Shown here: in pieces, positions 14,424 to 46,872 of the stretch
Position numbering within the stretch: position 1 is the first letter of the stretch
Layout: every line of letters starts with the position of its first letter
IMG/VR virus record: IMGVR_UViG_3300010365_001407
Coordinates: 1-49,462 of that record
Length of the DNA stretch: 49,462 nt
Strand: one strand, 5' to 3'
Origin: a virus
Lineage: Duplodnaviria; Heunggongvirae; Uroviricota; Caudoviricetes
Program-made: the position numbers and the translations under genes
Notes under the pieces: model-generated
The model's input: the letters and a program-made list of their open reading frames with translations, nothing else
Told to the model about the DNA's origin: nothing
Database searches by the model: none

Positions 14424-14428
14424 AATAG

Positions 14429-14498
14429 TACCGAGAAAGGGATTCGAACCCTCCTATAGACGGATATGAGCCATCCATGGTCACCAAGACCCCTCGGA
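14429..14498 (-). tRNA. tRNA (CAT), Met-type, reduced D arm
   Basis: Anticodon arm GATGG-CTCATAT-CCGTC; T arm GAGGG-TTCGAAT-CCCTT; D hairpin only GGTC-TTGGT-GACC; 1:72 mismatch. Confidence 0.65.
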
Positions 14499-14505
14499 AT
14501 GTTAG

Positions 14506-14574
14506 CAGTAGATGTAGGATTCGAACCTCAACGCCCCATCATACGAGGAATTTTACCAATTAAACTATACCACT
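14506..14574 (-). tRNA. degenerate tRNA, apparent anticodon ATG (His?)
   Basis: D arm GTTT-AATTGGT-AAAA; loop GT-ATG-AT; TTCGAAT T loop; mismatched T and acceptor stems. Confidence 0.4.
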
Positions 14575-14641
14575 TCCTGATTATTTTTTATCTAGAACTA
14601 TTACATAATCAGTATTATACTTACCTTCCAGTAAGTTTTTG

Positions 14642-14715
14642 CGGGACCAACGGGATTCGAACCCGCACCACACACCGTGACAGGGTGGTATTGTAAACCA
14701 TTCAACCATGGTCCC
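14642..14715 (-). tRNA. tRNA-Asp (GTC)
   Basis: GGGACCA/TGGTCCC acceptor, CT-GTC-AC loop, G73. Confidence 0.92.
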
Positions 14716-14722
14716 ATTTTAG

Positions 14723-14796
14723 CAGACATACCCGGACTCAAACCAGGATCCACCCTCTGACACGAGAGTACTCTTACTCAATTAAGCTATATGTCT
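14723..14796 (-). tRNA. atypical tRNA-Asp-like (GTC)
   Basis: AGACATA/TATGTCT acceptor, G73; anticodon loop GTGTCA of irregular size. Confidence 0.55.
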
Positions 14797-14801
14797 ATTT
14801 G

Positions 14802-14877
14802 TCGGGGCACAGAGACTCGAACTCTGATGATGTCCACATCCCAAATGTGGCGACTTAGCCAATTAGTCCACACCCCG
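14802..14877 (-). tRNA. tRNA-Pro (TGG)
   Basis: CGGGGTG acceptor, CCACA-TTTGGGA-TGTGG, A73. Confidence 0.92.
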
Positions 14878-14940
14878 AAAAATTTAATTCTATGCAGACC
14901 AACTCTCTGTCCCTATGAATTAATAACAGTCTACCATGCG

Positions 14941-15013
14941 CGGTTTATGAGGGATTCGAACCCTCTCCGTACCGGGCGACAGCCGGACATCTTAGCCATT
15001 TGACCTATAAACC
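14941..15013 (-). tRNA. tRNA-Asp (GTC)
   Basis: GGTTTAT/ATAAACC acceptor, CT-GTC-GC loop, G73. Confidence 0.88.
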
Positions 15014-15020
15014 AATTTAG

Positions 15021-15094
15021 CAGTACTAACGGGACTCGAACCCGCAATCTCCACCGTGACAGGGTGGCGTCATACACCAATATGCTGTAGCACT
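15021..15094 (-). tRNA. tRNA-Asp (GTC)
   Basis: AGTGCTA/TAGTACT acceptor, CCACC-CTGTCAC-GGTGG, G73. Confidence 0.88.
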
Positions 15095-15100
15095 ATTTAG

Positions 15101-15173
15101 TCGAAAAGATGGGAATCGAACCCACTAACTGATGCCTCCAATGCACCCGTGCTTAAACCTTAGTCACTTCTCG
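15101..15173 (-). tRNA. tRNA-Pro (TGG), atypical D arm
   Basis: CGAGAAG/CTTTTCG acceptor, GGTGC-ATTGGAG-GCATC, A73. Confidence 0.7.
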
Positions 15174-15836
15174 TTATTTTAACCATTTTCTAATAGAATT
15201 ATCACTAACTCCATATTTTCTACCTGTACCACTATATCCAAACTCTAAAATATCTATATTTAATTGTTCTAAACTTGGTCTTTCTACTTTTCTTCTACTA
15301 TATTTTTCACACTTATTACATTTTTCAGAAATGTTTGTTATAATACAACCACATTTACAATAGTTTACTTTTTTATTTTTTAAGTTTTTACCAGCAAATG
15401 TATCTAAACCAGCATTACAATTAGGACATACTATTCTTAAATTTTCTATTCTATTATCATCATGTATACCATTTTTATGGTCTATAATTAATGATATTTT
15501 CATTCCATTCCAATTTTCATCTTGTCCACATAAACAACATTTTCTTTCTAATAATCCTTCATCATATAATCTCTTTTTAAGATGTCCTCTATTATATGAT
15601 GATTTTTCTACTAATATATCTGATAAATCTATTTTATTATATTTATTCAAATTAATCATTTTTTCATAATTATGAGAAAAATGTTTTGTGTCTATATCAT
15701 ACAAATCAATATACTTCTTTAATGTCTTTGAATTGCCACCTGATGATCTTATTCCCATTTTCTCTAAACACTCTTTTTGAGTTTTAGACTTTCTAACAAC
15801 TTCTTCTAAATTTTCTTTTAACCAAATGTTTTTCAT
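15174..15836 (-). CDS. HNH homing endonuclease inside tRNA array 1
   Basis: CCLCG...IDHKNG...DNRIENLRIVCPNCNA; C-terminal HTH-like GVSDNSIRKWL; stop codon abuts tRNA-Pro. Confidence 0.9.
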   Translation of the reverse strand: MKNIWLKENLEEVVRKSKTQKECLEKMGIRSSGGNSKTLKKYIDLYDIDTKHFSHNYEKMINLNKYNKIDLSDILVEKSSYNRGHLKKRLYDEGLLERKCCLCGQDENWNGMKISLIIDHKNGIHDDNRIENLRIVCPNCNAGLDTFAGKNLKNKKVNYCKCGCIITNISEKCNKCEKYSRRKVERPSLEQLNIDILEFGYSGTGRKYGVSDNSIRKWLK

Positions 15837-15911
15837 AATAGTATTTTATTTTACTATATATATTAAACTATTGAACCTTCTTTTACTACATTTTAACATT
15901 TAGTTTTTTTG

Positions 15912-15982
15912 TTGAGATACCAGGGCTCGAACCTGGACTGTGTGCGCCAAAAGCACATGTGCTACCATTACACCATATCTCA
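15912..15982 (-). tRNA. tRNA-Gln (TTG)
   Basis: TGAGATA/TATCTCA acceptor, TGTGC-TTTTGGC-GCACA. Confidence 0.92.
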
Positions 15983-16108
15983 GTATTTGGTATATCAGAG
16001 CAGGTTTAATGATGATATACCCATTAAAATACCTCTATCTTTTTATCTGTATCTCCACTTAAACCACTGGAGTGTCTCAAAGATTAAAACGCAATATTTT
16101 AATGTTTG

Positions 16109-16179
16109 TTAGAGTACTGGGGGTCGAACCCAGAGCACAGGATCCAAAGGCCTGAATATTACCATTATACGATACTCTA
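16109..16179 (-). tRNA. tRNA-Gln (TTG)
   Basis: TAGAGTA/TACTCTA acceptor, CT-TTG-GA loop. Confidence 0.88.
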
Positions 16180-16185
16180 ATTTAG

Positions 16186-16259
16186 CGGGACCAACGGGAT
16201 TCGAACCCGCACCGCACAGCGTGACAAGCTGGCATTGTAAACCATTCAACCATGGTCCC
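16186..16259 (-). tRNA. tRNA-Asp (GTC)
   Basis: Near-copy of 14642..14715 with a different anticodon stem; TT-GTC-AC loop. Confidence 0.92.
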
Positions 16260-16269
16260 ATTTTACTTC

Positions 16270-16306
16270 AAAAAAAAATCTCATAAGAACTAACTTATGA
16301 GATTTT
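16270..16306 (-). terminator. attenuator terminator upstream of tRNA array 1
   Basis: Minus strand AAAATCTCATAAG-TTAGTT-CTTATGAGATTTT plus U tract, between leader ORF and first tRNA. Confidence 0.85.
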
Positions 16307-16327
16307 ATATTTTTACATTGTAATTTC

Positions 16328-16396
16328 TTAATGTGATATAAATACATAGTTAGTCTGGTTCGTGATACGATCCTGATCCTGCATCGGCTGCGGCAT
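16328..16396 (-). CDS. leader peptide 1 MPQPMQDQDRITNQTNYVFISH
   Basis: ATG CCG CAG CCG ATG CAG GAT CAG GAT...CAT TAA; first 9 residues are only M/P/Q/D, matching array-1 tRNAs. Confidence 0.75.
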   Translation of the reverse strand: MPQPMQDQDRITNQTNYVFISH

Positions 16397-16431
16397 AACT
16401 ACTATATTTTTATATCACATTTTCATAATAC

Positions 16432-16490
16432 TATATATTAACTTTTTATTGTTCCTTTTTGTTTTTTCTTATTTTTATACTACAAAAGTA
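16432..16490 (-). promoter_or_regulatory. tandem promoters for array 1: late-type TAATATATA (16432-16440) and host-type TACTTTTG (16483-16490)
   Basis: Same arrangement as upstream of arrays 2 and 3. Confidence 0.7.
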
Positions 16491-16520
16491 ATATAAAGTT
16501 TTCAATTCACCTAATTTTTG

Positions 16521-16646
16521 TTAGATTTTTTTAATTTCTTTTTTAGAAAGTGCTCTTTCTGAGCTCCAAAAGATTCTTTTGTATTTCTTTCTCAAGTGTT
16601 TAGCCCATTCTTTACAAACAGCAAATTGTCCTTTTTTACCAGCCAT
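16521..16646 (-). CDS. small basic protein (41 aa), below ORF-track cutoff
   Basis: Manual translation MAGKKGQFAVCKEWAKHLRKKYKRIFWSSERALSKKEIKKI. Confidence 0.55.
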   Translation of the reverse strand: MAGKKGQFAVCKEWAKHLRKKYKRIFWSSERALSKKEIKKI

Positions 16647-16653
16647 ATTTTTA

Positions 16654-16812
16654 TTATTTTGAAATTATTATTTTTTTAATATTTTTTACTTTTTCCTCAA
16701 AATTCAGATGATTTCTAAGGTTATTAATAGTTGCATAACTTGCCCCAGTCATTAAAGTAATACTTGTATTACTTTCACCTTGTTTAATTAATCTTTTAAT
16801 TTGCTCATTCAT
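16654..16812 (-). CDS. small HTH-like protein
   Basis: MNEQIKRLIKQGESNTSITLMTGASYATINNLR; ATG at 16812 lies just downstream of TATCTTTG (16817-16824). Confidence 0.5.
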   Translation of the reverse strand: MNEQIKRLIKQGESNTSITLMTGASYATINNLRNHLNFEEKVKNIKKIIISK

Positions 16813-16834
16813 TTGACAAAGATACAACTTAATT

Positions 16835-17074
16835 TTAAGATAGACAAGAATATATGTCAATTCTTTGTTGTTCAGTTAAACCTTTTGAGAACCAATCTTT
16901 TTCTAACATAATTCTTAAATGCTCAACATTTCTATTTATTCTGTCTTTATCTTCTTCTGTTAAAGAAGGTAGTAATTTTAATTCATTAATTAGGTTAACA
17001 GAATCAAATGCAGATGATATAGATCTCTGTACTTGTTCTAGTGTTTGTTCTTCTGGGTTTATTGGTAATTCCAT
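16835..17074 (-). CDS. hypothetical protein
   Basis: ORF track. Confidence 0.55.
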   Translation of the reverse strand: MELPINPEEQTLEQVQRSISSAFDSVNLINELKLLPSLTEEDKDRINRNVEHLRIMLEKDWFSKGLTEQQRIDIYSCLS

Positions 17075-24581: not shown

Positions 24582-24627
24582 AACATATCTTTTTATGATA
24601 TATATTAATTTTTTGGTTCTACCTTTG

Positions 24628-26487: not shown

Positions 26488-26568
26488 TACCCCAGATAGG
26501 ATTCGAACCTATATTTTCAGTTTCCAATTACCCGTAGTTGTTTAGAAGACAACTGGGACTACTGAGGC
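26488..26568 (-). tRNA. D-armless tRNA-Arg-like (TCT) with very long variable region
   Basis: GCCTCAG/CTGGGGT acceptor; GTTGT-CTTCTAA-ACAAC; T arm ATAGG-TTCGAAT-CCTAT; same 81-nt layout as 24877..24957. Confidence 0.6.
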
Positions 26569-27324: not shown

Positions 27325-27395
27325 AATTAAAATTATTTTAGTATATATATTAAAAAGTTGTGTCTTCCTTTTTATTTAACTTTTCAGTTCAATTG

Positions 27396-27558: not shown

Positions 27559-27568
27559 ATTAATTTTA

Positions 27569-27670
27569 ATTAATAGTAGGACTTGAACCTACACTAAGTT
27601 TATTTCATCCTTAGCCATATCCTCTATATCTCTGTATAAAGTTAGGTGTTTACCAGTTCCACCATATCAA
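27569..27670 (-). pseudogene. tRNA-Leu-type body with expanded, non-canonical anticodon/variable region
   Basis: D arm GGTGGAACTGGTAAACAC and T arm GTAGG-TTCAAGT-CCTAC present; no standard anticodon arm. Confidence 0.5.
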
Positions 27671-27673
27671 TTG

Positions 27674-46749: not shown

Positions 46750-46783
46750 ATATATTGTTTTGTGAGACTATCTCTCAACTTTG

Positions 46784-46854
46784 TAGCGTAGCGTGGATTC
46801 GAACCACCCCTTGGAGTTTATGAGACTCTAATGCAACCTTTACACTTTAACGCG
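46784..46854 (-). tRNA. divergent fMet-like tRNA (CAT)
   Basis: CGCGT start with 1:72 mismatch; CT-CAT-AA loop; weaker acceptor stem. Confidence 0.65.
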
Positions 46855-46872
46855 ATATATGTTTTATAGTTC

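Follow-up and report, generated by a model that had tools for sequence, protein, structure and literature searches.

Codon-matched leaders ahead of tRNA gene packs in giant phages: putative ribosome-mediated transcription attenuators

We found a short open reading frame (ORF) between a promoter-like element and an intrinsic terminator, directly ahead of a pack of tRNA genes in a giant phage, and its codons call for the tRNAs encoded behind it. The family to which this leader belongs probably acts as a ribosome-mediated leader-peptide transcription attenuator that gates a pack of Asp, Gln, Pro and Met tRNAs. This reading, drawn from sequence comparison, follows from the conservation of the module, the selection on codon identity, a fixed pairing between GUUAGU and GACUAAC, and five sister modules with a like logic. 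The DNA analysed here (49,462 nt, hereafter the window) covers the initial 49 kb of a giant-phage fragment of 113 kb from IMG/VR, which has a G+C content of 28% and carries 47 tRNA genes, all on one strand. The distant kin of the fragment are the uncultured phages LR745206 and LR756501-4 (630-735 kb). Among public sequencing runs, two activated-sludge DNA runs, in which 97% of the sampled words occur, are its possible source; just 6-9% of the sampled words are present in the RNA runs.

The module lies on the minus strand, and its anatomy could be read directly from the DNA (Table 1). The promoter-like element may resemble the Bacteroidota -33/-7 consensus (TTTG / TAnnTTTG). The TTAATATATA motif sits 3-25 nt 5' of the ATG of many phage ORFs, among them those of the leaders and the HNH genes located within tRNA arrays, and may be a phage-specific promoter or initiation signal. 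The ORF at 16396-16328 reads ATG CCG CAG CCG ATG CAG GAT CAG GAT ... CAT TAA. The first tRNA of the pack (Asp) begins 11 nt past the T tract of the terminator, and transcription of the tRNAs therefore needs read-through. Behind the leader there are only tRNA genes and one homing-endonuclease ORF, and no biosynthetic or synthetase genes. The Asp-like tRNA of the pack (window 14722-14796) has a 6-nt anticodon loop.

Table 1. Features of the Pro/Gln/Met/Asp leader module, HNH ORFs of the tRNA arrays, and the six leaders with their tRNA packs. Positions refer to the window unless marked as contig positions.
Feature	Position	Strand	Remarks
Promoter-like element: TTAG/TTTG, about 20 nt, then TACTTTTG (16490-16483)	16483..16514	minus	kept upstream of leader modules in contig G000 and relatives
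TTAATATATA motif of the leader module	16432..16441	minus	5 nt ahead of the conserved leader start codon
TTAATATATA motif sites in the window	16432-16441, 15857-15865, 24599-24607, 27344-27352		about 30 others across the contig
Conserved leader start ATG (16426-16424), then AAA ATG TGA	16415..16426	minus	TGA in frame, codon 4
Segment 1, anti-antiterminator 5' strand: outer arm 16421-16409, inner arm 16407-16397	16397..16421	minus	predicted fold
Remaining leader ORF, 22 codons and stop	16328..16396	minus	codons 11-33 of the family leader
Regulatory run Met-Pro-Gln-Pro-Met-Gln-Asp-Gln-Asp	16370..16396	minus	apical loop separating segments 1 and 2
Segment 2: GACUAACUAUGU (16355-16344), outer 3' arm 16342-16330	16330..16355	minus	partners: segment 1 or terminator 5' arm
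Segment 3: end of terminator 5' arm and loop (CAUAAGUUAGUU)	16288..16299	minus	antiterminator partner of segment 2 (nascent-RNA folds)
Intrinsic terminator: 13-bp stem, 6-nt loop (16306-16275), 9-T run to 16270	16270..16306	minus	-13.9 kcal/mol
Downstream tRNA pack: Asp, Gln, Gln, [HNH ORF 15836-15174], Asp, Asp, Pro, Asp-like, Asp, Met(CAT)	14428..16259	minus
HNH homing-endonuclease-like ORF within the tRNA array	15174-15836	minus
HNH homing-endonuclease-like ORF within another tRNA array	contig 58700-59163	minus
Leader Pro/Gln/Met/Asp			pack Asp, Gln, Pro, Met
Leader Thr/Ile/Asn/Val/Cys/Ser			pack Asn, Ser(CGA), Ile(GAT), Val, Cys, Thr
Leader Leu/Arg(AGA)			pack Arg(TCT), Leu
Leader Ile(ATA)/Ala/Glu/Gly/Tyr			pack Tyr, Glu, Ile(TAT), Thr, Gly (Ala in relatives)
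Leader Phe/Lys/His/Trp/Ser	outside window		pack Lys, Phe, His, Trp
Leader Ser/Arg(CGY)	outside window		pack Arg(ACG), Ser(TGA)

A degenerate pattern of the run retrieved four related IMG/VR contigs, already known from other searches, and 17 metagenome contigs. The comparison set consisted of 14 distinct leader sequences, that of the window and those of 13 relatives. In all 13 relatives an intact 32-codon ORF, reading MKNVN..., begins at the ATG equivalent to 16426, and the ATG at 16396 is its codon 11; the sequence-only reading had put the leader start at 16396, 30 nt too far downstream. The run itself (MPQPMQDQD) occupies leader codons 11-19, and its peptide is unchanged in 13/13 relatives. 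Four sites of the run vary, all at synonymous third positions (CAG/CAA twice, CCG/CCT and GAT/GAC), and amino-acid changes in the relatives are found elsewhere in the leader, at codons 2, 6, 8, 20, 21, 23 and 30-32. An invariant run peptide with synonymous variation only is expected if codon identity is under selection, and not if selection acts on a folded peptide or on the RNA sequence. All relative contigs that extend far enough have Gln, Asp and Pro tRNAs behind the leader, and four of them also have a tRNA-Met(CAT) farther on. The earlier proposal that the codons of the run call for the downstream Asp, Gln, Pro and Met(CAT) tRNAs holds for nine consecutive codons and is borne out by the permutation analysis described below. 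Its companion, that the final CAT codon of the leader matches an ATG-anticodon element, had to be given up: the last codon is His, Ser or Arg in the relatives, and no tRNA is called at that element by ARAGORN or by Rfam.

The relatives have reworked their terminator stem six or more times, and its bases, lengths and loops differ. GUUAGU is nevertheless present in the 5' arm or loop of the terminator in 14/14 sequences, across at least six different stems, and its partner is always the (A/G)ACUAAC of the leader. The 3' arm of the terminator tolerates the wobble variants AUUAAC and ACUAGC. In the nearest relative of the window (G001), a synonymous change in the leader, CAG to CAA, is matched by a compensatory C-to-U change in the terminator.

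The minimum free energy structure of 16430-16262 (ViennaRNA) consists of a 13 + 11 bp hairpin, whose top is rich in G+C, and the terminator behind it. Its energy is -47.4 kcal/mol, as compared with -23.5 +/- 3.4 kcal/mol for 200 shuffles (z = -7.1). On the minus strand, AATGTGATATAAA (16421-16409) is the exact complement of TTTATATCACATT (16342-16330), and GACTAACTATG (16355-16345) can pair with CATAAGTTAGTT (16299-16288) through 8 bp, a one-base bulge and 3 bp, with one G-U pair. The three pairings and the terminator thus lie where the sequence-only reading had placed them. The 13-bp stem that it described is perfect in the window; the stem of the relatives is imperfect, so perfection is peculiar to the window copy. 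The hairpin of segments 1 and 2 is predicted for every leader variant, and its helix is 93.5% paired over the 14 sequences, as against 24-45% when the partner is slid. Among the 14 sequences no two-sided covariation was found in this helix, both arms of which are coding; this counts against a switch.

In full-length equilibrium folds the terminator wins every time. The earlier proposal of folding with a ribosome constraint succeeded only in another form. Equilibrium folds with a simple ribosome mask always gave the terminator, and they were discarded as unphysical because stems close around the ribosome. They were replaced by nascent-RNA folds, in which the ribosome is put on the run and only the RNA downstream of it is folded, as far as the terminator loop. 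The antiterminator then appears in all leader variants, as it does in four further families treated in this way (C, E, G and H), and it is lost once the ribosome is moved toward the stop codon. When segment 4 is added to these folds, the terminator becomes more stable than the antiterminator. In the Pro/Gln/Met/Asp family the antiterminator has -7.7 to -14.1 kcal/mol and the terminator -14 to -22 kcal/mol (-9.2 versus -13.9 kcal/mol in the window copy), a difference that counts against the switch. In classical attenuators the terminator is likewise more stable, and the order of folding decides the outcome.

Taken by itself, the duplex of segments 2 and 3 in the Pro/Gln/Met/Asp family is not significant against shuffles (fraction 0.07-0.37), and the case for the antiterminator in this family therefore rests on conservation. 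The duplex is better than shuffles in four families (fraction about 0.01), and the antiterminator of the Tyr/Glu/Gly family has no clear edge over shuffles (fraction about 0.3). The Leu/Arg family displays a three-way covariation, with U/C in segment 2, A/G in segment 3 and U/C in segment 4. On this comparative evidence the core of the earlier reading, a leader-peptide attenuator, stands; its leader start, the generality of its perfect stem and its CAT link do not.

We infer that the leader ORF is translated, that its translation is coupled to transcription, and that the module responds to slow decoding. The promoter would drive a short leader transcript, and the 32-codon ORF would be translated as RNA polymerase proceeds. 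With rapid reading of codons 11-19, which are mostly rare and G-ending, or with no translation at all, segment 1 would pair with segment 2, the terminator would form, and transcription would halt 11 nt short of the first tRNA. If the cognate charged tRNAs are scarce, the ribosome would linger on the run and segment 1 would be held apart. GACUAAC in segment 2 could then pair with the emerging GUUAGU in the 5' arm of the terminator. With the terminator blocked, the tRNA genes would be transcribed, and the tRNAs would be cut from the read-through RNA. The net effect would be a negative feedback on decoding capacity. As a counterpoint, amino-acid starvation would stall the ribosome too and would induce the tRNAs uselessly.

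The copy in the window is altered. Compared with G001, it has three changes within 10 nt (an A lost, a G gained and an A-to-T change). Through this cluster (16409-16426, minus) a formerly imperfect 5' arm matches the 3' arm base for base, and the sequence ATG AAA ATG TGA arises; we suggest that a template switch may have perfected a quasi-palindrome here, a type of mutation that yields such clusters. The resulting in-frame TGA at codon 4 (16417-16415) is found only in the window among the 14 distinct sequences, and an exact search of IMG/VR found the TGA variant in no other contig. The hairpin of segments 1 and 2 has -31.0 kcal/mol in the window and -16.6 to -23.8 kcal/mol in the relatives, making it 7-14 kcal/mol stabler. 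TGA is an ordinary stop in this genome, where it terminates 16/103 long ORFs. Recoding of TGA was considered and rejected: the standard code gives about 82% coding, and reading TGA as sense adds less coding than reading TAG as sense.

All this speaks for the possibility that the window copy is a crippled attenuator and, in effect, a constitutive terminator, a reading that we hold to be somewhat less likely than its opposite. The proximal tRNAs would then hardly be made from this promoter, and the distal tRNAs would rely on the TAATATATA signal ahead of the HNH gene of the array; such a motif is indeed present at 15865-15857, 5' of the HNH ORF. However, the copy retains an undamaged regulatory run, segment 2, GUUAGU and terminator. 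Restart is also conceivable, because the in-frame ATG directly before the run (16396), 18 nt past the TGA, is unpaired in the predicted fold; its place at the top of the -31 kcal/mol hairpin speaks against a response. An error in the metagenome assembly is a further possible source of the TGA variant. As modelled, the window copy would respond only if ribosomes start or restart at 16396, and would otherwise be a constitutive stop. It may thus be locked off by its mutation.

The attenuator reading of the family draws on six modules in the contig, each consisting of a promoter, a 25-36-codon ORF, a terminator and a tRNA pack. The same is true of five related IMG/VR contigs, in which the order of modules and packs is the same. 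Modules also occur in 17 metagenome contigs and in the published huge-phage genomes LR745206 and LR756502. Another of the six leaders lies at window 46566-46465 (minus), and two modules lie beyond the window, at about contig 59390 and 57139. The upstream regions of the other arrays contain, in order, TTTG or TTAG, about 20 nt, TACTTTTG, an A-rich leader, TTAATATATA, an ATG, the ORF, a strong terminator and the tRNAs. The six packs jointly cover all 20 amino acids, nearly without overlap. Ile and Arg are divided among the packs by anticodon, and the leaders mirror this split at the codon level: AGA precedes Arg(TCT) and CGC/CGT precede Arg(ACG), and ATA precedes Ile(TAT) and ATT precedes Ile(GAT). 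A TCG codon precedes Ser(CGA).

We compared each leader with each pack in a codon-versus-anticodon matrix, counting the codons that a pack can read via standard wobble rules. In every row of the matrix the strongest enrichment falls on the pack behind the leader concerned (p from 8e-3 to 1e-8), and of the 720 permutations the actual pairing of leaders with packs comes first in each of four genomes. No 9-residue run from {P,Q,D,M} exists in the 151,998 aa of background long ORFs of six contigs, the longest such run having 6 residues. The pack-residue runs of three other leaders are also longer than any background run, and the runs measure 9-17 residues overall. Rare codons account for 20-25% of the codons in leaders versus 6.7% in genes (p 8e-10 to 3e-15); in these phages, only 3% of Pro codons are CCG and 12% of Gln codons are CAG.

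We found related leaders in more distant phages. LR745206 has a Pro/Gln/Asp/Met leader ahead of Pro, Asp and Gln tRNAs, with GUUAGUC in the terminator. The leader of its merged Leu/Arg and Asn/Ile/Val/Thr array is a blend of Asn, Leu, Met, Thr, Val, Ile, Cys and Arg, and merged Asn/Leu/Val/Ile/Thr leaders precede merged packs in both LR745206 and LR756502. The latter phage has seven consecutive Gln codons (CAG, CAA) located 66 nt 5' of three Gln(UUG) genes and one Gln(CUG) gene, with a terminator and a predicted antiterminator. A second, separate Asp/Gln/Pro leader of LR756502 stands ahead of Pro and Asp tRNAs. These leaders indicate that leader composition tracks pack composition across phages.

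Alternatively, each leader might be an ordinary small-protein gene with its own terminator and no switch. The tRNAs would then come from leaky read-through or other promoters, and the codon match would reflect coincidence or shared ancestry. The thermodynamic preference for the terminator in all full-length folds is in line with this, and the common N-terminal MK(T/N) pattern of the leaders suggests duplication. We nevertheless consider it quite improbable, given the first rank of the leader-to-pack assignment (1/720) in four genomes, the absence of the 9-17-residue pack runs from a background of 152,000 aa, the match at the codon level, the change of leaders together with packs in LR745206 and LR756502, and the retention of GUUAGU through rebuilt terminators.

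If the modules are attenuators, they may form a larger scheme. We lean slightly toward the view that the giant phages of this clade possess a closed-loop control of decoding capacity, in which six attenuators each induce their own pack and the window copy is a natural locked-off mutant. The sensor codons would preferentially be rare, G- or C-ending ones. Depletion of tRNAs, whether by host shut-off, anticodon nucleases or a codon-usage mismatch, would be sensed and answered pack by pack. In that case the ribosome would be the sensor of tRNA supply, and phages would regulate large tRNA sets on demand rather than just carry them. This would bear on the near-complete tRNA sets of giant phages and on how they cope with host defences that target tRNA. 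It would also offer compact, codon-programmable sensors of decoding speed, with the truncated copy of the window and its intact relatives as a natural pair of mutant and wild type.

To our knowledge, the genes described as subject to leader-peptide attenuation are those of amino-acid biosynthesis and a small number encoding synthetases. A full-text literature search found no description of leader-peptide control of tRNA genes. The proposed phage design corresponds to that of the multivalent enterobacterial attenuators (ilvGMEDA, ilvBN and thr; also trpL, leuL and pheL), in which a short leader is translated and regulatory codons of several amino acids stand in a run. Those attenuators have three pairings (1:2, 2:3 and 3:4), an intrinsic terminator, and termination as the default without translation. 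Unlike them, the phage element would control tRNA genes instead of biosynthetic enzymes and has a putative Bacteroidota-like promoter. Its run is located in the loop that separates segments 1 and 2; its ORF continues through segment 2. The two have no relation in sequence or in Rfam. The his operon leader, with seven consecutive His codons, is similar to the leader with seven Gln codons before the four tRNA-Gln genes of LR756502, which however precedes the tRNAs of the amino acid and not genes for its synthesis; the leader of the window differs further in being multivalent.

Closer in target are the pheM leader of pheST and the His leaders before hisS paralogues of bacilli (PMC2965389), which sense charged tRNA and act on the decoding machinery, as the phage leaders would. 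Those leaders control aminoacyl-tRNA synthetases in cellular genomes, whereas the phage leaders precede tRNA genes. The hisS study knew leader peptides only from Proteobacteria, Actinobacteria and Firmicutes (PMC2965389). The T-box riboswitch is, like the proposed phage switch, a terminator/antiterminator switch that answers to the state of a specific tRNA. It differs in binding uncharged tRNA directly, through the specifier codon and the T-box sequence, without translation, and the phage element has no T-box match.

Searches with the Rfam leader families (Trp, His, Leu, Thr and Phe) and T-box found none of them, and only tRNA reached the gathering score in the window, L013 and L086, except for a GOLLD RNA of LR745206. 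At an E-value of up to 10, no relevant family was found in window 15800-16900. An RNA that works independently of translation, as a structured small RNA or as a leader binding tRNA or protein directly in the manner of T-box or TRAP, is the least credible reading and very unlikely: the very stable fold (z = -7.1), the G+C-rich apical region as a candidate binding site and the broken ORF of the window would suit it, but Rfam detects no family other than tRNA even at this E-value, the frame is intact in the relatives and the run varies at synonymous sites only, pointing to selection on codons, and the six leaders have unrelated sequences with only their coding logic in common.

Several minor features of the tRNA arrays were also observed. 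Among its tRNA genes, LR745206 has a full-length GOLLD RNA (Rfam RF02032, 287 bits) at about 420875-421280 (L086:34268-34673), and Rfam found no copy of it in the window. Between a TTAATATATA motif and a tRNA-Met there is a tRNA-like sequence (window 46760-46855, minus) that has a GGTTCGAATCC T arm and CTCATAA at the anticodon position; neither ARAGORN nor Rfam called it. The tRNAs at window 26488-26568 and 27568-27671 are called by Rfam alone, and one of them perhaps has a 10-nt intron. The HNH ORF at contig 59163 separates a leader terminator from its tRNAs, where the relatives have a mere 73-90 nt. An odd tRNA at contig 57189-57282 has an 8-nt anticodon loop (cgat).
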